IMG/VR virus record: IMGVR_UViG_3300045988_141393
DNA: 60,346 bases
DNA from: a virus
Lineage: Duplodnaviria > Heunggongvirae > Uroviricota > Caudoviricetes
Direction: 5' to 3' (one strand)
Made by a program: the position numbers and the translations under genes. Position 1 is the first letter of the stretch, and every line of letters starts with the position of its first letter. Positions 1-32,311 of the stretch are shown here, one piece after another. The notes under the pieces are model-generated. The model was given only the letters and a program-made list of their open reading frames with translations, was not told the origin of the DNA and made no database searches.

Positions 1-193
1 CGCGTGGATGCCATTTATCGCACAAGATAGAGTGCATTTATCGCGCGGCGCATCATCATTTGTTGATATGCGAATGTATCCAATAAGCATATGTCTCCCT
101 TGTATGCTAAGGATACGATCCTAGAAGATGTCCTGTAAGGAAATAACAAACTGACTAAGTTAGTGGCGCATTAGATGTTATTTCTGGAGGGGT

Positions 194-520
194 ATGTTTG
201 CAGATTATGAAAATCTGGCTGTAGTAGTCATAACATCCCTACTAAGTGGAACCGGCGTATTCCTTCTCGGAGTTAGAGACGGGCGCATTTCTGCGTCCCT
301 GCTCAATCTTGCGAGTGAATTGTTTACTGCGGTAACAGCCGGGCTTGCGGGGTATGGGGTGGCGGTTAGCCAAGAATGGCCTGAAGGTATCATTTTCTGC
401 GTTGTTCTGATTGCCAGTAACAACGGTAGTGAAATTTTACAGGGCTTGAAGTCCAGAGCTAGTAACGTCTTGAATCTCTTAAGCGTAATAGCGAATGGGG
501 GAAAAGGTGGAGAGAAATAA
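194..520 (+). CDS. Small membrane protein, possible holin (LydA-like by size and position)
   Basis: 108 aa, hydrophobic segments; first gene of an operon whose order and sizes resemble the P1 lydA-lydB-darA region; synteny only. Confidence 0.3.
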   Translation: MFADYENLAVVVITSLLSGTGVFLLGVRDGRISASLLNLASELFTAVTAGLAGYGVAVSQEWPEGIIFCVVLIASNNGSEILQGLKSRASNVLNLLSVIANGGKGGEK

Positions 521-966
521 TGGGTAACTTTGGAAATTATTTCATTTTTATCATGGCATTTGTTGCCATCATTGACCGTTTCATTTTTCGTCGCAAGAGT
601 GTTGAGATTTTGAGTATTGGTGACGCTGTAGTGAAAGAATCTGCTATAGCATTTCCTGTTTCGCTACGTGTTAAGCGAAGCTGGGTCAGCAATGCTCAAA
701 TCGAATATTGGTTGCAAGACCTGAAAAATCCATCTGTGGTTATTTCAGGGAAAACGCGACCAGTTGACGCCTCAAAACGCGGTGAGAGAGAAGAGTATTT
801 GCTCATCGATACGAAATATCTTGAGCCAACGAAGTGGGATCTGAAAGTCACATTGACTAACGGTAACTGCCGACTGAATCCGCTTTATCGCATTTTCCCT
901 ATCAATGACTGCATAGAGCGCCAGTTTACGATCGAAAAGCGTAAAGGAGACTGGGATGTCAAATAA
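520..966 (+). CDS. Possible antiholin (LydB-like by size and position)
   Basis: 148 aa, start overlaps stop of upstream ORF; synteny only. Confidence 0.25.
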   Translation: MGNFGNYFIFIMAFVAIIDRFIFRRKSVEILSIGDAVVKESAIAFPVSLRVKRSWVSNAQIEYWLQDLKNPSVVISGKTRPVDASKRGEREEYLLIDTKYLEPTKWDLKVTLTNGNCRLNPLYRIFPINDCIERQFTIEKRKGDWDVK

Positions 967-1576
967 GAATAATTATGTTCTTCTTAATTATGATGAGTTA
1001 AACGAAAAGGGGCTGGCAAAACTCGTCAAAGAAATCAGCAAAGGTGGTTACAAGATAGCGAGGGTGATCCCTGCAAGTAATGGCAGGAAGAAAGATGGGA
1101 TCATGACGCGCACGTTTACCCTTATTGGTATTGATGAACAGACAATGGAAGTTCAGGTTAACGATACCGGTGATATATCTGGGATCAAACTGAATGGTAA
1201 AACAGTACCGTTCAAGCCAGTAAAAACAATGTCGGCTTTGGGGCAATCTCTTGCGGCTTTATTTAATCGCGGAGCAACTTCTTTCCAGAAGTCATTAGCT
1301 CGAAAACTTGCTCGTGCAGCAAAAAATATTGATGACGGAAATAAGAAGCGGCAGGGAGTTAAATCTAACGCTCAGAAATTAGCTGAAGCGAAAGAATCAC
1401 GTGATGCACTCCGTGAAGATATCGCTAATGCTAACGACAAACTGTCTAAACTCCAGAGCAAGTCAGACAAAGTAATACAAGATACGGGTAACGTTAAAGC
1501 TGCCTTGTCTCAGGAAGTAGCTAAGACACGTGCTCTTAAAGAAGAAATCGCGCGCCTGGAGGATGAGCATGATTAA
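956..1576 (+). CDS. Coiled-coil protein, Hdf-like position upstream of DarA-like gene
   Basis: 206 aa, K/E/A-rich coiled-coil C-terminus; synteny only. Confidence 0.3.
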   Translation: MSNKNNYVLLNYDELNEKGLAKLVKEISKGGYKIARVIPASNGRKKDGIMTRTFTLIGIDEQTMEVQVNDTGDISGIKLNGKTVPFKPVKTMSALGQSLAALFNRGATSFQKSLARKLARAAKNIDDGNKKRQGVKSNAQKLAEAKESRDALREDIANANDKLSKLQSKSDKVIQDTGNVKAALSQEVAKTRALKEEIARLEDEHD

Positions 1577-3506
1577 CAATCCTTTACGAATTAATATTCA
1601 GTCTACTTTTGCTGATACGATCCCCGGCTATGTGCCAAGTCGCTGGTCTTCAGAAGAATTAAGCGAAGATGACCTGATTTTTGAGGCGGCGACCTTAGAA
1701 GATATTGAGCTTGCCTATATGGGCAATGAAATACTGGTTGTGTCTGACGAAGCTATGTTTGAGTCCATAACTACAACCAGAATTCGGTTAGCTCAAACAA
1801 TGCGAGCTTTCGTCCGTGCGCTGAATCGTGGCCTGAATGGTACGAATATTATGGCAGGGACTGATGAAGCCGGGACCGATGAAAATGGACGTAATTGTAT
1901 TGGTGGTGCGATTATCGGTCGTGTGCGTCGGGTAGCTAATATCCCTGTTTTGACCGCGCAGATACCGCTTACTGACGGGCAGAGTACAAGCATAATTTTC
2001 CACTCTCCAACAGCTGACGGGGCAAAAATAAAGAGTAACGACGAGCTTGTTGCATTTCAGTTTTTACTTAATAAGCGTAACGTAACTCACGTTGTCGCCC
2101 CGATTGGTGGGAGAGATGTTTCTTTAAGCCAGGTATGCCAGGCGCTATCTAATTTGATTGAGCGTAACAGCGAAAAATTTAAGAAAGCAAAAGAGCGCCA
2201 GGACAAAATGAAGGCAGATATTGAGAGTTATCTCAATGAAGCAGATAAACTGGCAGAAGAACGGTCAATAATGATTGATCAGGTGGACGTTGCGCAACGT
2301 GGGCTGACTGAAAAGCGTGCTGCTCTTACGGAGATGCAAAAAAAACTTGATGCCCAGAAAGCTATCAATGAGGAGTTACAAGCAAAACGCGATAAATTGT
2401 TGTCTTCTAAAGGAGAAAAAACGAAAGAACGAGCGTTTAGTGACCAGCTGCGACATGTAAAACATAATCTTGCCATTGACGGAAAAACAGTGCTGGATAA
2501 TGGCGCTGAAGTTAATTATGTCACGTCCGGCAGTGACAATTTCGTTACGATAGTAGCACCTGAAGGTAAATTCAGTATTGATGCCAGTGCTGTCAAAGGA
2601 GGCAGTTTGGCAGATGCTGCAACCAAATTACTTAAAGCCTACCGAGAGCATAACGCAGAAAAATATAAAGTTGATTTGTTACCAGGCCAGCTGGAAGACT
2701 CCGAACCACCACAGACGGACCCCGAAACAAACCCAGTATCACAACCAGAGAGCCAAGATGTAGGTAAATACCACTATGCACTTCAATCTCGCCCGGCTGG
2801 TGTTGGTGCTGTTCCGGATGGAAATAAAGCCGTGCTTGATCGTCCTGACCAGGCTGATCAGTATTACGAATATGCTCGTCACGGTATCATTACGTATGAC
2901 CGTAAACTGACAGATGAAGAAGTCAGCCAGTACGAGTTGCTTTATCTTCCTGATGAAGATGAGCTGAAAGATTTTGCAGGCCAATTGGTTGCGTCCAGCA
3001 TGTCGAAACATATTGATGGCTATGTGGACCTGTTTGGCAGTGACCTGAAAACATTCAAGGCGCAAGTGAAAATTCTTTTCCGCAAAGCGTTTCCAAACGT
3101 GGCGTATCCACTTAGTGATGGGGAGAACCTTTTCATTATGGACGTGTATAACGCCCTTCAAAATCATTCAAGCGAAGTAAAAACAGAGAATGTGGTTGAG
3201 CCAGAATCACAACCACAACCACAACCACAACCAGCACCAGAACAGGAGTCGGAGCCAGAAGAAGCGGGTGAATCAGCAAGTGAAGCTGATCAGGAAGCAG
3301 ATAAAGCGCTGGAGTACCTGAAATCCGTGCCGGAGCAGTTTACATCCCGCGATCTGACGGTCATCAGTGCTGAACTTGATCATGTGCAGGAAGCAGCAAA
3401 CGCTCTAATCAGTGCAGGTCGATACGACGAGAACGAAGCCACTGTGGGTGCAGCAGTTGACTACCTGATCAATATTCTGGCTGAAATTCAGCAGGGAGGT
3501 GTTTAA
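1563..3506 (+). CDS. DarA-like internal head/antirestriction protein (putative)
   Basis: About 647 aa from ATG 1563 preceded by GGAGG; coiled-coil centre, in-frame (QP)n linker, acidic C-terminus; size and operon position match P1 DarA; not verified by alignment. Confidence 0.35.
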   Translation: MSMINNPLRINIQSTFADTIPGYVPSRWSSEELSEDDLIFEAATLEDIELAYMGNEILVVSDEAMFESITTTRIRLAQTMRAFVRALNRGLNGTNIMAGTDEAGTDENGRNCIGGAIIGRVRRVANIPVLTAQIPLTDGQSTSIIFHSPTADGAKIKSNDELVAFQFLLNKRNVTHVVAPIGGRDVSLSQVCQALSNLIERNSEKFKKAKERQDKMKADIESYLNEADKLAEERSIMIDQVDVAQRGLTEKRAALTEMQKKLDAQKAINEELQAKRDKLLSSKGEKTKERAFSDQLRHVKHNLAIDGKTVLDNGAEVNYVTSGSDNFVTIVAPEGKFSIDASAVKGGSLADAATKLLKAYREHNAEKYKVDLLPGQLEDSEPPQTDPETNPVSQPESQDVGKYHYALQSRPAGVGAVPDGNKAVLDRPDQADQYYEYARHGIITYDRKLTDEEVSQYELLYLPDEDELKDFAGQLVASSMSKHIDGYVDLFGSDLKTFKAQVKILFRKAFPNVAYPLSDGENLFIMDVYNALQNHSSEVKTENVVEPESQPQPQPQPAPEQESEPEEAGESASEADQEADKALEYLKSVPEQFTSRDLTVISAELDHVQEAANALISAGRYDENEATVGAAVDYLINILAEIQQGGV

Positions 3507-3874
3507 TGACCATCTCTGTTTTAGACCGCCTGAAATTAGGTAAAGAGCTATCAGATCTAATGCAGGCGCAGAAAACTGCGCCAGTATTGCAACGCGTCAC
3601 CATTGGTAAGCAGATTGTTGATGTGATGCTGAAATTGGGCCTGGGGACTGCCGCGCAACCGGCAGCGGAACCGCAACAACAGGCTGATCCTGTTGTAGAT
3701 GAAGTCCCTAAGATAGTGACTGACTTCCTGGGCGGTGTGTTCACAAAGTCCACACAAATGGAATTTATTGATGCGCTGCGTGGGATCTCAAACTATGTTG
3801 GCGAGTTCCTTACGTTGGAGCAGGCTAAAGAGCAGACCATAAGCTGGGTGAAAGCTAACGGTTATGCCGGGTAA
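3506..3874 (+). CDS. Small protein, DdrA-like position
   Basis: 122 aa, ATGA-type overlap with upstream stop; followed by hairpin. Confidence 0.3.
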   Translation: MTISVLDRLKLGKELSDLMQAQKTAPVLQRVTIGKQIVDVMLKLGLGTAAQPAAEPQQQADPVVDEVPKIVTDFLGGVFTKSTQMEFIDALRGISNYVGEFLTLEQAKEQTISWVKANGYAG

Positions 3875-3876
3875 TC

Positions 3877-3903
3877 AAAAGGGGCTGAAATGCCCCTTTC
3901 ACT
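3877..3903 (+). terminator. Hairpin terminator-like element
   Basis: AAAAGGGGC-tgaaat-GCCCCTTT stem-loop directly after CDS end. Confidence 0.35.
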
Positions 3904-3956
3904 TATCTGTTCTCACATAAATCACACACTTTTTACACTCACAGCTTTCTCTATAG

Positions 3957-5354
3957 TTGGAGTGTATTTTGAACAAATCAGTTACTTCTGCGCTTTCCGA
4001 GGCCGCAGATATTAACAGCGTCATTGCTCTGGTTTCTTCATTAGAGAGGAAAGAAACACGCCTGGGGCGAAGTAGCTACGTAGTCACCAGCAAAGGTGCA
4101 GAGGTAAAGACGGCTTTTAAGGTCGTTGACGCCAGCAGTCTGATCATTTCGAACAACCTTGACGGTGCGATTAACCCGGCCTTCCCGGAAGAACTCCAAC
4201 CACGAGATCGTACCCGGCTATCCAGCAAACTCCAGGTTAACCGTATTGCCTCCAATTTACGCCCGGCACAATTAACGGATTCCGGTATGAGCAGCCACGG
4301 AGCGCCTATAGTTGGTCCGGACAACGTTGTTGAATCCGGCAACGGAAGGAGTATGGGTATCTGGCGTGCCTATGAGCAAGGACAGGCGGATGAGTATCGC
4401 CAGTACCTGATCGACCATGCGAAAGAGTTTGGTCTGAATCCTGACGAAATTTCGCAAATGTCTATGCCCGTACTGGTGCGAGAAAGACTCACAGATGTAG
4501 ACCGCGCTCAATTTGCCCGCGATTCAAACATTAGTGATCTGCAAGAGATGGCAGCAAGTGAAAAAGCGTATGCGGATGCGCAATTTCTCACTGAGAGCGT
4601 CATGGCGCTATTTAATCCTTCAGATGATGGAAATCTGCTGGCGCGGTCCAATGATGCGTTTATTCGTGCGTTTTTGCGCGAAATTGGCGATACAGCGATG
4701 GCAGGCTTGCTTACTGCCGATGGGCGTCCCACGAAACAGCTTATCGATCGCATCCAGAATGCAATTTTTGCCAAAGCGTACAAGGATGAAAGGCTTGTTC
4801 GGCTGGTGTCGGAAGAGCCAGATCCGGAAATGCGTAATATCCTGACCGCATTAAATACGGCAGCCAGCGATTTTGCGCAAATGCAGTCGCTGTCTGGCGA
4901 CGCTCACCATGACGCAGTAACAGGCTTAGTGGACGGTATAGAGCAGGTTAATGGCCTGGATACACAGGCGATAGCAGCACTCCAGGAAGCAATTAATCTT
5001 GTTCGTGAAGCCAAAGACAACGGTCAGGCCGTTGAAGAAGTGATCGCCCAAAGGGGGTTATTCGGCGACAGTACACCGGAAGCTGAGGCATTGGCGCTAT
5101 TCATCGTAGCAAATAATCGCAGTGCGAAGCGTATGGGGGCAGCATTCAAAAAAATGGCGCAAAAAATCAACGACGAGCTGACTCATAAACAACAGGCATT
5201 GGGCGATATGTTCGGCGGTGGCGATGTTGATCTGCGTCGTATTTTGTCTGCTGTATCTGATGAAATTGAGGGTGAATTTGGCGAAGGGAAAGGTCTGAAC
5301 TTTGCTATGTTTGAAAATTCTACAGATCTAAATAATTGCCGTACGGAAAACTAA
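3957..5354 (+). CDS. Hypothetical protein (465 aa; start may be TTG 3969)
   Basis: Long ORF, uniform coding character, GGAG upstream of 3969. Confidence 0.35.
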   Translation: MECILNKSVTSALSEAADINSVIALVSSLERKETRLGRSSYVVTSKGAEVKTAFKVVDASSLIISNNLDGAINPAFPEELQPRDRTRLSSKLQVNRIASNLRPAQLTDSGMSSHGAPIVGPDNVVESGNGRSMGIWRAYEQGQADEYRQYLIDHAKEFGLNPDEISQMSMPVLVRERLTDVDRAQFARDSNISDLQEMAASEKAYADAQFLTESVMALFNPSDDGNLLARSNDAFIRAFLREIGDTAMAGLLTADGRPTKQLIDRIQNAIFAKAYKDERLVRLVSEEPDPEMRNILTALNTAASDFAQMQSLSGDAHHDAVTGLVDGIEQVNGLDTQAIAALQEAINLVREAKDNGQAVEEVIAQRGLFGDSTPEAEALALFIVANNRSAKRMGAAFKKMAQKINDELTHKQQALGDMFGGGDVDLRRILSAVSDEIEGEFGEGKGLNFAMFENSTDLNNCRTEN

Positions 5355-5418
5355 ACCAACCGCTGAAATCACATACTGATTATGCTGCCGCAAAACTGGA
5401 AACAATTTGCGGTGATTC

Positions 5419-7101
5419 ATGGCAACGAAAGACAAAAACAAAGGCTTTCTGTCAGCATTGAAGAAAGCCTTCAACGGTGGTGATGTTACGCCCGCCGATC
5501 CGGTCGTTTTTACGAGCGGGCATAGTGTCGTTGCTCGTTCCGGCCTGTCTGCTTTACGCCCAGGTATACTGGGGAGCAACAGCGATGGCATGACGAGTGC
5601 AGCAGATTCAATTTCTTTATCCTCTGAACTGCCCGGCGAGCGCCTGCAAAAGTACAACATCCTGGAAACGATGGCTAAAAGCCCGACTATCTCGACGGCT
5701 TTAAATATTCACATTGCACATGCGCTTGCGCCTTCAAAAAAAACCGGACAAGCATTCATCCTTTCGCCAAAGGATGGTTCCGATGCTGAGGCAGTAAGTA
5801 GATGTGAAGAGTTAACTGCTGATTTGGGGGCGATGATTAATGACGGACTTCCTTCATGGGCCATGATTATGGCGATCTTTGGGGTGTCTTATGTCCGCCC
5901 TTATGCTGAACAGGGCAGGGGGATAACAGGCATTGAGTCCAGTTATTACACTCTGCCACACTTCGTCCAGGAGTTTTATCGTGGTAGCCAGCTGGTAGGT
6001 TTCAGTGGTGATTACATCCTGGATACGCATAGTTTGCGCAGAGTAATAACCGAACCGTGGAATCTGGTTTCCATGAAAAATCCCTATTGGACGCCGCAGC
6101 ATAAAGTTATTCCGGTCAGCTACGGCACAAAAGGGTACTCACTGTTAAGTGAGCAGGCTGATAAGCCGTTAATGGAGACGCAGAATTACGGAACTTCATT
6201 CCTTGAATACAGCTATGAACCTTACCTGAATTTATGTGCTGCGCTCGCCGCGCTGAAATCAACGCGAAATAATGCAGCCAAAATTGACCGCCTGATTGCT
6301 CTTACGACGAACACACTGGACCCGGTTAATGCGGCGAACTATACGCGTGGCGTCAGCCAGGCATTGAAGCGACATAGTGACCTGGTGGCGCAAAGGTCGA
6401 TTAATGCCAACGCTATTCCGACGGTGCTTAACCACCTGATACCTGTTATGGGAGACGGGAAGAACGGTATCACTATTGATACGCAATCCATACCCGCAGA
6501 TATCAGTGGTATCGAAGACGTTATGTTTCACCTCCGGCAGCTTGCTGCAAGCCTAGGCATTGACGCAACAATGCTTGGCTGGGCTGATCAGATGAGTGGT
6601 GGACTTGGGGAAGGCGGTTGGCAGCAAACAGCTATCCAGGCCGCATTACGTGCGAACTGGATCAGACAGGCCGCGCAGCGAACTATTTATCGGCTTCATG
6701 ATATTCACCTCGCTTATAAATACGGGAAGGTTTACACCGAAAAAAACCGTCCTTATGACGTGCAATTCAACTCAATGAACACTGCTATCCAGGAAGAGGA
6801 AAACCGGGAACTGGATGCACGCGCCAACTTTGTTGCTGTCATCTCCCAAATTATGGACCAGATCCAGAACAACCCGAAACTGGCTGGTAGTGACGCGTTT
6901 ATGCGTTATCTGTTCACCGAGCAGTTGCACATCGACGATGACACTCTCAACACCATGATCAAAGAGTTTAAGGCGAATGAATCAGAGCAAAACAACGAGC
7001 ATGGTATGTACGAATCCGCGCCGTTGTCGTCCGGTGACGATCCGGAAAACTGGACGCCAGAACAGTTAATAAACTTTGCAAAATTTGTGATGAGCAATTA
7101 A
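5419..7101 (+). CDS. Hypothetical protein, possible portal (Prt-like position)
   Basis: 560 aa ORF after the Dar-like operon; portal assignment is by size and synteny with P1 only. Confidence 0.3.
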   Translation: MATKDKNKGFLSALKKAFNGGDVTPADPVVFTSGHSVVARSGLSALRPGILGSNSDGMTSAADSISLSSELPGERLQKYNILETMAKSPTISTALNIHIAHALAPSKKTGQAFILSPKDGSDAEAVSRCEELTADLGAMINDGLPSWAMIMAIFGVSYVRPYAEQGRGITGIESSYYTLPHFVQEFYRGSQLVGFSGDYILDTHSLRRVITEPWNLVSMKNPYWTPQHKVIPVSYGTKGYSLLSEQADKPLMETQNYGTSFLEYSYEPYLNLCAALAALKSTRNNAAKIDRLIALTTNTLDPVNAANYTRGVSQALKRHSDLVAQRSINANAIPTVLNHLIPVMGDGKNGITIDTQSIPADISGIEDVMFHLRQLAASLGIDATMLGWADQMSGGLGEGGWQQTAIQAALRANWIRQAAQRTIYRLHDIHLAYKYGKVYTEKNRPYDVQFNSMNTAIQEEENRELDARANFVAVISQIMDQIQNNPKLAGSDAFMRYLFTEQLHIDDDTLNTMIKEFKANESEQNNEHGMYESAPLSSGDDPENWTPEQLINFAKFVMSN

Positions 7102-7114
7102 CCGGAGGGAAATA

Positions 7115-8113
7115 ATGCAATCACTGAATACTGTTACGGATCGCTTCTCCCTGGTAGAGAAAATCCGCAAACACACACCGCAGAACAACCGAAATTATGT
7201 CATTCAGTCGGTACGAGACACATTCAACTCGCCAGAAACAAAAGAGCGTATCGCGCTGGGTGAGATGTATGGTTATTACGGTCATGGTCGCCGGGCGATG
7301 CACTATAACAAAACGAAAAGCCTGAACTTGCCGGAAGTCTCTGTTGTGATGGTAGATGGGAAGCCTGTTGTATTGGAGAACGTGCCGTCAAACAGGACTA
7401 TCGACATTTCGATTGACGACAACGGCATTGTTACGCATACGCAGGAAATACTGGATACAGACACCGGGCGTATTGTTCAGGGCATGATTAATTCTGGTGC
7501 TGGTGGTTGGTCGTGGGCTACATCTGGTCCAGATTCATCGGTATCCCTGGTAAAGTCTTTCCACGGCTTTGATTACGTAACTGTGCCTAACTATATCAGC
7601 CTCGACAAGAAAAGCCTGATGCTTGAATCAGCAGAAGAGCGCGATGCGGCTATTCATGCAGCACTTATCGAACAAGGTTTTACCGATAACGCTGCTACGG
7701 ATCTGGTTCACCACTTTTCAGCAATGAAAAATCAGCAAGCCATGCTCGAATCTGCACATCGTGAAGCCCTGGAATCAGAATTGATGCTCCTTGAAGTGGA
7801 AAACATACAGCTTCGAGATAAGCTGCGCGCTCAAACAGCGATGATGGAAAGCCAGGGGGAAAATGCAAAGCAATGCCGCCGGATTTTGCGTGACGCTATC
7901 CAGGAAATGCCTGTTTTTATCAGCGCAGAACAGCGCCGGGCGCTCTGCCGTATGCAGTCTGAAGATGATGCCCGCATAGTGGCTGCGATGCTTGAATCTC
8001 TTGGGGCAAATGCTACTTATGGCTTACCGGTATCAGGCAAGAAAGAACCAGAGTTATCACCGAAGGAGAACAAAAACACCACCCCGTTACTCTTCGTTTC
8101 TAGAAGGGGGTAA
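7115..8113 (+). CDS. Hypothetical protein, possible head-processing protease (Pro-like position)
   Basis: 332 aa ORF immediately after the putative portal; synteny only. Confidence 0.28.
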   Translation: MQSLNTVTDRFSLVEKIRKHTPQNNRNYVIQSVRDTFNSPETKERIALGEMYGYYGHGRRAMHYNKTKSLNLPEVSVVMVDGKPVVLENVPSNRTIDISIDDNGIVTHTQEILDTDTGRIVQGMINSGAGGWSWATSGPDSSVSLVKSFHGFDYVTVPNYISLDKKSLMLESAEERDAAIHAALIEQGFTDNAATDLVHHFSAMKNQQAMLESAHREALESELMLLEVENIQLRDKLRAQTAMMESQGENAKQCRRILRDAIQEMPVFISAEQRRALCRMQSEDDARIVAAMLESLGANATYGLPVSGKKEPELSPKENKNTTPLLFVSRRG

Positions 8114-22755: not shown

Positions 22756-22832
22756 GATGGTGTAGCTCAGTAGGATAGAGCAGCAGCCTTCTAAGCTGTC
22801 GGTCGGTGGTTCGAATCCACCCACCATCGCCA
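22756..22832 (+). tRNA. tRNA-Arg (anticodon UCU)
   Basis: Manual cloverleaf: acceptor GATGGTG/CACCATC, D GCTC/GAGC, anticodon loop CUUCUAA, T-loop TTCGAAT, 3' CCA encoded. Confidence 0.8.
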
Positions 22833-22837
22833 ATTTA

Positions 22838-22924
22838 GGGGAGTTAGTCCGTAGGGGTAGCGGGGTAGACTGTAAATCTACTGTCATTGCGACTCGGGTG
22901 GTTCGACTCCATCACTCCCCACCA
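22838..22924 (+). tRNA. tRNA-Tyr (anticodon GUA), long variable arm
   Basis: Acceptor GGGGAGT/ACTCCCC, anticodon stem GTAGA/TCTAC with loop CTGTAAA, T-loop TTCGACT, CCA encoded. Confidence 0.7.
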
Positions 22925-22928
22925 AATT

Positions 22929-23004
22929 GCCGGTTTAGCTCAGTTGGTAGAGCGCCTGCCTTGTAAGCAGGATGTCAGCGGTTCGAGTCCGTTAACCGGC
23001 ACCA
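22929..23004 (+). tRNA. tRNA-Thr (anticodon UGU)
   Basis: Acceptor GCCGGTT/AACCGGC, anticodon stem CCTGC/GCAGG loop CTTGTAA, T-loop TTCGAGT, CCA encoded. Confidence 0.8.
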
Positions 23005-23406
23005 ACACAACAGGTAAGGGCATTCTCCCTTATGGGGCTTGGCTTAAATGCATCGAGTGCTCTTACCGTTGTGATGAAGTGCAGCTCTTTGAAGCAACCA
23101 GAAGATAAGCATCTGGCTTCACAACATAAACCGCAGGAACGACCAATAAACGGTAGTCCGTATGGAGAACACCCCGTTGAGGAAGAGGCCTGGCCGGAAC
23201 CGTAACCGGCACCACAACGTTGAGAACACTGGCGTAACGGGGTCATATCCCAATCTATGAATAAATGTTGCGTTGCAGCGTGACAACCAGTGTTCTCAAC
23301 ATTGTGGTGAATGCACAGGCTGATGTGCCGCAACTACAGTAGTGCGCGCTTTGCGGGGCTTGCTACAACCCTGTGTCGGAGTTCAGCACCGACCATCACA
23401 ATCACT

Positions 23407-23493
23407 GGAGAGTAGGGAGCATGGTGCTCAAGCGGTCTTGAAAACCGTCCCATTGCGCAAGCGATGATGGTTCGATTCCATTACTCTCCGCCA
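23407..23493 (+). tRNA. tRNA-Ser (anticodon UGA) candidate, class II
   Basis: Acceptor GGAGAGT/ACTCTCC, anticodon stem GCGGT/ACCGT loop CTTGAAA, 17-nt variable arm, T-loop TTCGATT, CCA encoded; short D-loop makes it less certain. Confidence 0.55.
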
Positions 23494-23756
23494 GTGCAAC
23501 GTTAAGAGTATTTGGCTAATTAAGCGAATGCCGGAAGCAGAACCGGATCACCAAATGCGTACAGGCGTCATCGCCGCCCAGCCAGCCAAGTGCTCTTACC
23601 ATTGCGGTGAATGCGGCTAAGCGCACGCGGAACAGTTAAAACAATCCTCCTTAGTGGTTAAGTCAAACATCCCGGCGTTAATTGTTAACTGGTTAACGTC
23701 ACCTGGAGGCACCAGGCACCGCAGCTTTTTTATTCGGTAAATAATGGAGTGAGAGG

Positions 23757-23993
23757 ATGCAGAACAATCCGAACAAATGTCGAACGCTATGGGTGCGGTT
23801 ATATATTTATGTCGTCCTCTGTTTGATTGTGTCACTGGTTCTGTATGTTTGGCTTTTGCCAAATATGATCTCATCTGACAGCACAATACTTGTATTGTTG
23901 GGAGTCCTTCTCGCGCTCATTTACCCGGCTTTTGCAGTAGTCTTTTTTCGTGAAAAAACCAGGAAATTGATTAATGAAAAAAACGTTGATTAG
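23757..23993 (+). CDS. Small membrane protein
   Basis: 78 aa with two hydrophobic helices; overlaps start of downstream SPFH gene. Confidence 0.3.
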   Translation: MQNNPNKCRTLWVRLYIYVVLCLIVSLVLYVWLLPNMISSDSTILVLLGVLLALIYPAFAVVFFREKTRKLINEKNVD

Positions 23994-24801
23994 TGCAGCG
24001 ATTATTTTTGGTTCTTTATGTCTGACCGGATGCGATCGGGTAGAGCCAGGTAACGTAGGGATCAAAGTAAATAAGCTGGGGGATGATAAAGGTATCGGTG
24101 AAGTAGTTGGCGTTGGTCGCTACTGGACAGGCTTGAATACTGAAGTTTATATCTTCCCGACCTTTAAGCAAATGAAGACATACGATGAGCCGTTCAGCTT
24201 CCAGATGAGCGACGGAACAACCATTGGTTACCACATCGGCGTAGCCTACAAGGTTGATCCAGCAAAAGTCACAACGGTATTTCAGACCTATCGCAAAGGT
24301 GTAGATGATATTACTGATACCGATCTACGCCAGAAGGTTGCAGATGCTCTGAACCGGTTAGCCAGCAAAATGACCACCGACAAATTTATCGACGGTGGCA
24401 AATCTGAATTGCTTGATGCAGCCCTTAAAGACATTCAGGAAGAAATGACGCCCATCGGTATTCAGGTAATGAGCCTCTCATATGTGGGCAAGCCGGAGTA
24501 CCCGCCAACCGTTATCGACAGCATTAATGCCAAAGTCACGGCGAACCAGAAAACTCTGCAACGCGAGCAGGAAGTCAAGCAACGCGAAGCAGAAGCCAAC
24601 ATGCTGCGCGCAGAAGCTGCTGGACAGGCCGATGCCATTCGCACAAAAGCCCAAGCTGAAGCTGATGCCATTCGTTTACGCGGTGAGGCTCTGCGCCAGA
24701 ACCCCGGCGTTATGGAGTTGGAAGCGATCAACAAATGGAACGGAACGCTACCGCAGTATATGACCAGTAATACCGCTGTTCCGTTTGTTCCGGTGAAATA
24801 A
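23974..24801 (+). CDS. SPFH/band-7 domain lipoprotein
   Basis: 275 aa; signal peptide with lipobox LCLTGC; coiled-coil A/E/Q-rich C-terminus typical of prohibitin/HflC-like proteins. Confidence 0.5.
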   Translation: MKKTLISAAIIFGSLCLTGCDRVEPGNVGIKVNKLGDDKGIGEVVGVGRYWTGLNTEVYIFPTFKQMKTYDEPFSFQMSDGTTIGYHIGVAYKVDPAKVTTVFQTYRKGVDDITDTDLRQKVADALNRLASKMTTDKFIDGGKSELLDAALKDIQEEMTPIGIQVMSLSYVGKPEYPPTVIDSINAKVTANQKTLQREQEVKQREAEANMLRAEAAGQADAIRTKAQAEADAIRLRGEALRQNPGVMELEAINKWNGTLPQYMTSNTAVPFVPVK

Positions 24802-24955
24802 CCAAATAGATAACATGATGGAATTTTGGACGTTTGCCGACAAGAACCCTTGGTGGACATTTTTATTTCTGCTGGTGGTTGCATATGGGGTCGAGCAAGC
24901 AGCAAAAGCCTTACGCGGTCCTGGCAAAAAGCGTAAGCGGAATTAACAGTAATCT

Positions 24956-25031
24956 GGCCCTTTAGCTCAGTGGTTAGAGCTGGCGACTCATAATCGCACG
25001 GTCACCGGTTCAAGTCCGGTAGGGGCCACCA
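24956..25031 (+). tRNA. tRNA with CAU anticodon (Ile2 lysidine-type or elongator Met)
   Basis: Acceptor GGCCCTT/AGGGGCC, anticodon loop CTCATAA, T-loop TTCAAGT, CCA encoded; resembles enterobacterial ileX-type tRNA. Confidence 0.7.
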
Positions 25032-30916: not shown

Positions 30917-31097
30917 TAAAATTACTATGACAAATTTATGTCGAATAACAGAGTGAGTAAAGGATCGAACTGTGATTTTTTGTCATCAATTTTAGAAAAC
31001 CAACCGTAGAAACCACACTTCGCAAATTAAAGACCATGAAGGCAACGTGTTACTGGTCATCATCAATCTATGATGGATTTAAAAAAATCGGCATTTT

Positions 31098-31131
31098 ATA
31101 ACTTTAAATAATTGGCATTATTTAAAGTTAA
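31098..31131. other. lox-like site (13-bp inverted repeats flanking 8-bp spacer)
   Basis: ATAACTTTAAATA-ATTGGCAT-TATTTAAAGTTAA; arms match 12/13; shares ATAACTT...ATA with loxP arms; 150 bp upstream of cre-like gene. Confidence 0.55.
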
Positions 31132-31282: not shown

Positions 31283-32311
31283 ATGAGTGAATTAATTATC
31301 TCTGGCAGTTCCGGTGGTTTTCTGCGCAACATTGGCAAAGAGTACCAGGAAGCCGCAGAAAACTTTATGCGGTTCATGAATGACCAGGGAGCTTATGCGC
31401 CGAATACTCTGCGCGACCTCCGTTTGGTGTTTCATTCCTGGGCGCGCTGGTGTCACGCTCGCCAGCTTGCCTGGTTTCCGATCTCACCAGAAATGGCCCG
31501 CGAGTATTTTCTTCAGCTGCATGATGCCGATCTGGCTTCGACCACCATTGATAAGCACTACGCCATGCTGAACATGCTGCTTTCGCATTGTGGCCTTCCG
31601 CCACTTTCGGATGATAAAAGTGTTTCTCTGGCTATGCGGCGCATCCGGCGCGAAGCGGCAACTGAAAAAGGCGAACGAACAGGCCAGGCTATACCGCTGC
31701 GGTGGGACGATCTGAAACTGCTCGACGTCCTGTTGTCCAGGTCAGAACGGCTGGTGGATCTGCGCAACCGGGCTTTTCTCTTTGTTGCATACAATACGCT
31801 GATGCGTATGTCGGAAATCTCGCGTATTCGTGTAGGAGATCTGGACCAAACAGGTGACACTGTCACGCTACATATTTCACACACGAAGACAATAACGACC
31901 GCCGCCGGGCTTGATAAGGTGCTTTCCCGTCGCACTACCGCTGTGCTGAATGACTGGCTGGATGTTTCCGGGCTTCGCGAACATCCTGACGCAGTGCTGT
32001 TCCCGCCGATACACCGTAGCAATAAGGCCAGGATCACGACAACGCCCCTTACTGCACCTGCAATGGAGAAAATATTCAGCGACGCCTGGGTGTTGCTGAA
32101 TAAAAGAGATGCTACGCCAAACAAAGGAAGATACCGGACGTGGACCGGGCATAGTGCACGCGTCGGGGCCGCTATTGATATGGCTGGAAAGCAGGTGTCT
32201 ATGGTGGAGATCATGCAGGAAGGAACCTGGAAGAAACCGGAAACACTTATGCGGTATCTTCGCCGTGGCGGCGTGTCTGTGGGGGCTAATAGCCGCCTGA
32301 TGGATTCGTAA
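31283..32311 (+). CDS. cre: Cre-like tyrosine site-specific recombinase
   Basis: 342 aa (P1 Cre is 343); blocks WARWCHARQLAWFP, RNRAFLFVAYNTLMRMSEISRIRVGDLD, WTGHSARVGAAIDMA, IMQEGTWKKPETLMRYLR parallel Cre. Confidence 0.8.
   Translation: MSELIISGSSGGFLRNIGKEYQEAAENFMRFMNDQGAYAPNTLRDLRLVFHSWARWCHARQLAWFPISPEMAREYFLQLHDADLASTTIDKHYAMLNMLLSHCGLPPLSDDKSVSLAMRRIRREAATEKGERTGQAIPLRWDDLKLLDVLLSRSERLVDLRNRAFLFVAYNTLMRMSEISRIRVGDLDQTGDTVTLHISHTKTITTAAGLDKVLSRRTTAVLNDWLDVSGLREHPDAVLFPPIHRSNKARITTTPLTAPAMEKIFSDAWVLLNKRDATPNKGRYRTWTGHSARVGAAIDMAGKQVSMVEIMQEGTWKKPETLMRYLRRGGVSVGANSRLMDS

Follow-up and report, generated by a model that had tools for sequence, protein, structure and literature searches.

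Simple sequence repeats in bacterial and phage genes are often phase-variation switches, and a perfect run of CAACCA units inside the coding sequence of a phage head protein raises the question of whether its copy number changes among relatives and, if so, what such changes do to the protein. The run lies in the window, by which we mean the whole 60,346-nt stretch of DNA that was analysed. The window belongs to a D6-type, P1-like phage-plasmid; positions 56-7999 share 96.6% DNA identity with Escherichia phage D6, the window aligns collinearly with lydA, lydB, hdf, darA, ddrA, ddrB and prt as annotated in D6, and its open reading frames (ORFs) at 194-520, 520-966, 956-1576, 1563-3506, 3506-3874 and 3957-5354 keep the order lydA-lydB-hdf-darA-ddrA-ddrB found in both P1 and D6.

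The repeat falls within the ORF at 1563-3506 (plus strand, with an alternative start at 1530), which profile and orthologue matches identify as darA. Its product matches the NCBIfam model NF052326 (anti_RE_DarA, 'antirestriction phage head protein DarA') over the full length (1136.5 bits, cutoff 350; residues 4-647 on profile positions 1-654) and contains the Pfam domains DarA_N (PF18788, residues 64-203, E = 5e-40) and DarA_C (PF18789, residues 401-464, E = 9e-19) in that order. Amino acid identity is 94% to D6 orf27/darA and 38% to P1 DarA, and the sequence matches the P1 DarA chain 9ukm_I in the PDB with E = 7e-122. P1 DarA is packaged into the head, processed by Pro and protects DNA against type I restriction, a role known for P1 only; all the other Dar proteins depend on it and on Hdf for their incorporation, and both affect head morphogenesis (PMC12810830, PMC9024508). 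In the P1 virion, the part of DarA that spans residues 70-382 is paired with Hdf and anchored at the junction of penton and hexon, and cryo-EM does not resolve the C-terminal half, residues 383-639, in situ (PMC12810830). The features of the gene referred to below are these:

1563..3506, plus strand: darA coding sequence, 647 amino acids and stop, assigned to the antirestriction internal head protein DarA (ORF list, translation, NF052326, Pfam).
3180..3281, plus strand: predicted acidic, proline-rich inter-domain linker, residues 540-573, KTENVVEPESQPQPQPQPAPEQESEPEEAGESAS (AlphaFold2, composition, 50 homologues).
3208..3233, plus strand: perfect hexanucleotide tandem repeat, (CAA CCA)x4 in frame at 3210-3233 (Tandem Repeats Finder, shuffles, relatives with n = 1-12).
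3234..3239, plus strand: single GCA CCA (Ala-Pro) unit directly 3' of the QP tract.
3246..3251, plus strand: second small indel site of the linker, GAG TCG (Glu-Ser) (alignment, flank haplotypes, indels in locus L033).
3282..3503, plus strand: predicted conserved C-terminal three-helix domain, residues 574-647, tethered by the linker (AlphaFold2, conserved columns).

At 3208-3233, where the letters read cacaaccacaaccacaaccacaacca, Tandem Repeats Finder reports a repeat of period 6 with 4.3 copies, 100% matches and 0 indels, and it reports no other perfect repeat of at least four copies in the 60-kb window. The leading CA of the run belongs to the TCA codon of Ser549, and the four full units that follow are read as (CAA CCA)x4 and translated as QPQPQPQP, Q550-P557 of the 647-residue protein; the in-frame CAACCA run encoding this peptide, which had been proposed in a first-pass annotation made from the letters alone, is therefore confirmed by the repeat finder, by direct reading and by translation. 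The 24-nt motif (CAACCA)4 occurs once in the whole window, and in 100 dinucleotide-preserving shuffles of the window the expected number of occurrences was 0.00. A variable number tandem repeat (VNTR) is taken to comprise at least three perfect head-to-tail short units, and the tract has 4.3 copies of its 6-nt unit.

Copy number was compared among relatives in three ways. The whole gene, searched against PLSDB by megablast, matched 113 plasmids (93 Escherichia, 14 Salmonella and 6 Shigella), with gene match lengths that were mostly 6-nt steps apart. With the repeat at its centre, a 321-nt probe matched 86 records, every one plasmid-borne, from 85 complete E. coli genomes, as well as 113 PLSDB plasmids, and its match lengths in complete plasmids of E. 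coli, Salmonella and Shigella were 303, 309, 315, 321, 327, 333, 339, 345 and 351 nt. Finally, the tract was read directly in 27 related loci and the window, the loci comprising representatives of the length classes, four IMG/VR contigs and ten metagenome contigs. Most of the comparative data come from plasmid and E. coli collections; an exact-pattern scan for the repeat with its right flank in one-genome-per-species contigs gave 0 matches.

The directly read loci and the window carry 1, 2, 3, 4, 5, 6, 7, 8, 9 or 12 perfect CAACCA units, bounded by ...GAGCCAGAA[T/C]CA on one side and by GCACCAGAACAGGAG on the other; since loci were partly picked by length class, these counts are a catalogue of alleles, and neither allele frequencies nor an unbiased census. 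The comparison of repeat number among relatives had been set beforehand as the refuting test of the annotation, and the number proved not to be invariant, with alleles of 1 to 12 units. The codons CAA CCA are identical in every unit of the tract, which points to recent duplication at the DNA level and not to selection on the peptide. The longest alleles seen, with 8-12 units, came exclusively from Salmonella plasmids, and n = 7 was read from one E. coli O111 plasmid as well; common descent or selection could lie behind this host restriction of long alleles.

The pace of change was judged from full-length genes aligned with the tract masked. Across the rest of the 1.9-kb gene, no substitution and no indel separates four Salmonella plasmids (L012-L015), which carry 12, 9, 7 and 8 units respectively, and a further pair of loci (L005 and L021) is identical outside the tract, with four units in one and five in the other. 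The repeat is the fastest-changing site of darA, and changes faster than point substitution accumulates. Change is also recurrent: at least three flank haplotypes carry expansions, with several alleles on each. On haplotype A the tract has 1, 3, 4, 5 or 6 units; haplotype B combines 7, 7, 8, 9 and 12 units in DNA with EP(QP)1-3 in database proteins, and haplotype C shows 2 and 6 units. The second indel site, GAGTCG at 3246-3251, belongs to a pair of adjacent GAGNCN units, of which one is missing in the haplotype C relatives. Indels in the tract are of 6 or 12 nt only; since they add or remove whole 6-nt units, the reading frame is kept. The expectation that linker length would alter without a frameshift thus holds, as genes that are otherwise identical differ only in unit number, in steps of 6 nt.

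Phage D6 and its close relatives lack a tandem repeat at this position and have CACCCACAAACA instead, where the codons CAC CCA CAA ACA (His-Pro-Gln-Thr) stand in the peptide context SHPQT. Among the matches listed, this D6-type allele accounts for 24 of 60 E. coli records and 20 of 60 plasmid records, and its probe match is 320 nt in all of them (24/24 and 20/20, the latter from PLSDB); likewise, the linker peptide is 37 residues long in all 11 database proteins that have it. Intermediate states occur, namely CAACCA-CAAACA in two loci (L002 and L009) and CAACCA-CAACCA in several. The D6-type is invariant in length and the repeat type is variable, so that length varies only where at least two identical units are present, as slippage predicts.

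Could the differences be errors of sequencing or assembly, in which a short repeat is collapsed or expanded? Some 'complete' plasmid records do have darA lengths that are not a multiple of three, owing to single-base indels in A runs, and these are probable errors; they fall elsewhere in the gene, however, and none is in the tract. The tract spans 6-72 nt, far below read length, its units are perfect, and identical alleles turn up again in separately made assemblies that differ in laboratory, country and type of data (complete plasmids, IMG/VR, ENA metagenomes and Logan). We regard an artefact as scarcely credible and reject it, because the differences are all exact multiples of 6, because they recur independently, and because the non-repeat D6-type allele is constant in length among the matches listed.

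A second possibility is that the tract is an on/off contingency locus subject to phase variation, or else a signal in the DNA itself, such as a protein binding site, a promoter or an RNA element. Switching of this kind is common for simple sequence repeats, as mentioned above, but here the unit is 6 nt long and in frame, and the ORF is intact in every allele read. As to a DNA signal, the motif has a single occurrence in the window, no promoter-like site was found within 2900-3700 and no Rfam match within 2500-4200, and no ORF of at least 60 amino acids spans the repeat on the opposite strand; three weak terminator-like matches lie away from the repeat, at 3438-3456 and 3578-3595 on the minus strand. 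Both readings are very improbable, and we reject them on the in-frame unit and on the want of a promoter-like site at 2900-3700 or an Rfam match at 2500-4200.

An AlphaFold2 (AF2) model of DarA on a 50-sequence alignment was of moderate quality overall (mean pLDDT 69.6, pTM 0.28). It is confident in the N-terminal body and in a long helix, in a domain at about 401-540 (pLDDT 72-91 as 10-residue block means, mostly at least 84) and in three C-terminal helices at 574-592, 598-617 and 621-644 (block means 79-87). Foldseek searches of the PDB with this model gave 9ukm_I (E = 1.5e-16) and 9vz0_I (E = 7e-10) as the sole significant matches, which cover the N-terminal half only and are silent on the binding partner of the C-terminal domain. 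Segments with pLDDT below 50 are 1-68, 168-186, 283-289, 374-394 and 540-571. The first of these corresponds to a part of P1 DarA suggested to be removed by the Pro protease (PMC12810830); 374-394 is a first proline-rich linker, and the QP run at 550-557 sits in the middle of the last. The tract is thus predicted to lie in a disordered linker between two folded domains. That linker, residues 540-573, has a net charge of -8 and 7 Pro in 34 residues, and there is a weak match to the Pfam procyclin family (EP-repeat, Trypan_PARP) at residues 542-580; many DarA homologues have a precomputed match to the same family (PF05887).

Among 50 DarA homologues, those without an inserted domain have 15-45 residues before the conserved 'SEAD...' C-terminal domain, and this stretch is mostly proline-rich, with up to 38% Pro and XP repeats in many; in Cronobacter phage JK004 it contains (AP)4-5. 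Judged from these sequences, composition is kept across the DarA family and length and sequence are free, with no preferred length. The DarA linker would presumably be extended or flexible. A 14-residue deletion (P0143) was also observed in the same linker. The word 'linker' in the first-pass annotation therefore stands, given predicted pLDDT below 50 at 540-571 between confident domains and a family-wide XP-rich stretch of variable length. The 'acidic tail' that was said to follow stands only in part: about 16 further acidic linker residues do come after the tract, but then begins a conserved, acidic 74-residue domain, predicted as three helices, with a net charge of -11 and with conserved columns from E574/A575/D576 to G646 that are common to P1 and Cronobacter JK004 DarA, so that this is no mere tail.

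At this position, other units have been expanded in sister lineages of DarA. In a cluster of 83%-identical proteins it is the neighbouring unit that is repeated, as ESQP(AP)nEQE with n = 1, 2, 3 or 5; at the DNA level, the allele with n = 5 consists of CAACCA followed by (GCACCA)5 (L030), and the single GCACCA unit at 3234..3239 of the window is the counterpart of this expanded microsatellite, (GCACCA)1-5. In a cluster of 78%-identical proteins the tract is (EP)/(VP)n, encoded by (GAACCA)3-4. Three units, CAACCA, GCACCA and GAACCA, have expanded independently at one linker position. The ancestral-type sequence has CCA every 6 nt, so that any 6-nt unit is easily duplicated and the sequence is predisposed to slippage.

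These expansions are among the points that could be taken to favour an adaptive tuning knob, in which selection favours differing linker lengths and the microsatellite is kept as a device of evolvability. DarA helps to determine head size and also serves as the platform on which the other Dar proteins are packaged; such tuning would act through the reach of the C-terminal domain, and so on cargo loading, the ratio of capsid sizes or release on ejection, in a host-dependent manner; the expansion of three different units at the same position in sister lineages, the confinement of the 8-12-unit alleles to Salmonella plasmids among those seen, and the part that DarA and Hdf play in incorporating the other Dar proteins and in head morphogenesis (PMC12810830, PMC9024508) are all consistent with it. 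With a CCA every 6 nt in the ancestral-type sequence, however, mutational predisposition is by itself enough to account for independent expansions; the D6-type allele without a repeat is common among the matches listed, and linkers of 15-45 residues across the family give no sign of an optimum. We consider selection for linker length unlikely, and slightly less likely still the specific proposal that repeated XP microsatellites in D6-type phage-plasmids vary C-terminal reach as a host-dependent modulation of antirestriction packaging or of the head ratio.

Very probably, then, the tract is a coding microsatellite (VNTR) in darA that changes by slippage in a length-tolerant XP linker. Identical CAACCA units would misalign during replication of the phage-plasmid, through slipped-strand mispairing, or during unequal exchange between copies, and the misalignment would add or remove whole 6-nt units; we infer slippage as the molecular mechanism, and unequal recombination would give identical products. 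Each unit would mean one Gln-Pro more or less in a disordered, acidic, XP-type linker that is predicted to join the DarA_C-containing domain (about 401-540) to the three-helix domain (574-647), and the length of the tether would change accordingly. A polyproline-II helix rises by about 3.1 Å per residue; on this figure, up to about 6 Å could be gained per unit, and alleles with n = 0 and n = 12 could differ by up to about 7 nm. Since the length of the unit is divisible by three and changes of length are tolerated in the linker, all alleles from (QP)1 to (QP)12 persist, each with the gene unbroken. Tether length would drift near-neutrally and would not act as a switch. Several alleles, including the no-repeat D6-type, each occur in many independent records and the family has no preferred length, so that near-neutrality is the simplest account; length variation in the tract is probably near-neutral, and seems to have no strong effect on fitness, although we hold this with less confidence than slippage in the linker.

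Comparable loci and linkers are known from other systems. Like the VNTR loci used for MLVA typing of S. Typhimurium (STTR5, STTR6 and STTR10pl), the darA tract is a short perfect repeat on a mobile element that differs by whole units between near-identical isolates. These MLVA loci have a 6-bp unit, and STTR10pl is carried on the S. Typhimurium virulence plasmid. STTR6 is located on the prophage Gifsy-1, and STTR10pl forms part of the MLVA string (PMC3901673). The darA tract differs from them in belonging to D6-type phage-plasmids and in that its allele range of 1-12 comes from database sequences and not from typing studies. Its presumed origin by slippage in a short coding tandem repeat is shared with the tetranucleotide contingency loci of Haemophilus and Neisseria, but those shift the frame and switch a gene on or off, whereas darA alleles are all in frame and modulate length.

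As a linker, the tract resembles the (EP)n(KP)n region of TonB, the (AP)n hinge of OmpA, the (EP)n repeats of procyclin and the Ala/Pro linkers of E2 in having alternating X-Pro between folded domains; high acidity and a length that varies between homologues are also common to the DarA linker and these systems. Procyclin is a trypanosome protein and the Ala/Pro-rich E2 linkers belong to 2-oxoacid dehydrogenase; XP linkers of the TonB, OmpA and procyclin type are extended and polyproline-II-like. The likeness is one of composition alone, without homology, and DarA is found inside a phage capsid and not in the cell envelope. The closest comparison is the orthologue P1 DarA (PDB 9ukm/9vz0; PMC12810830), which shares gene order and domain order and has a short XP linker, TQPEPAPAQPDET, at the same position before the conserved C-terminal domain, but at only 38% identity and with no tandem DNA repeat there. 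The darA repeat is a standard coding VNTR in a standard XP-type linker, and the searched literature yielded no prior description of a repeat or VNTR polymorphism in darA itself.

The phenomenon is an ordinary one and biologically modest, with a clean comparative demonstration. D6-type phage-plasmids are frequent in E. coli, Salmonella and Shigella, and in them the tract is the most variable site of an otherwise highly conserved darA; it could serve as a typing marker that separates otherwise identical plasmids in epidemiological tracking, and its variation inflates the number of 'distinct' DarA sequences in databases, where one 90% cluster has 1162 members. For the protein, it means that the tether to the C-terminal domain tolerates anything between about 0 and 12 additional QP dipeptides, and the alleles provide a natural linker-scanning experiment for dissecting how the Dar antirestriction complex of P1 and D6 is assembled in the head.

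Length variation in DarA extends beyond the CAACCA tract of its main linker (residues 540-573), the acidic, Pro-rich stretch between the DarA_C-containing domain and the C-terminal three-helix domain. GAGTCG (window 3246-3251), one of two neighbouring GAGNCN units, is absent from relatives carrying haplotype C, one of at least three flank haplotypes around the repeat, and makes a second whole-unit indel of this linker. One database protein (P0143) has 14 amino acids deleted from the same linker, between two EPE motifs. Another Pro-rich linker lies nearer the N-terminus:

2682-2744, first DarA linker (residues 374-394), Pro-rich and low-confidence, before the DarA_C domain

Across the alignment of DarA homologues (A3), this first linker also differs greatly in length, being 14-55 amino acids long in most and up to 159 in a few long ones, with a Pro content that reaches about 50%; in DarA of Cronobacter phage JK004 this position is occupied by a long (XP)n run.

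In several plasmid records described as 'complete' (loci L032, L033 and L034), single-base indels in A runs, at window positions ~2338 and ~2415, divide darA into two annotated ORFs; these are probably long-read sequencing errors rather than true pseudogenes. The 168.8-kb Salmonella plasmid NZ_MK356558.1 (hit H188) has two sites that match the 321-nt darA linker probe, one of them over 341 nt at 86% identity; this record may be a cointegrate or carry a second DarA variant.

Departures from Escherichia phage D6 are seen downstream of darA and at the left end of the window. The first concerns the interval between two genes:

3957-5354, ddrB
5419-7101, prt, the portal gene

In phage D6 this interval holds two genes, orf24, whose product has a DUF4145 domain, and orf23; the window lacks both, the gap here being 5354-5419, and the D6 side of the match is ~1 kb longer and in two pieces. 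At the left end, bases 1-55 have no likeness to D6 and are 100% identical to E. coli prophage records PV468777 and CP025887, D6 homology beginning at base 56, which falls in the 5' portion of the region of the cin invertase gene. The invertible tail-fibre segment is probably where the contig was broken.

Elsewhere, the window contains a tRNA cluster and two further short tandem repeats:

22756-25031, + strand, cluster of five tRNA genes (Arg-TCT, Tyr-GTA, Thr-TGT, Ser-TGA and Met-CAT)
24558-24599, 21-nt unit, two copies, within ORF 23974-24801
31082-31131, 24-nt A/T-rich unit, 2.1 copies, in the gap upstream of ORF 31283-32311

The A/T-rich repeat could be iteron-like.
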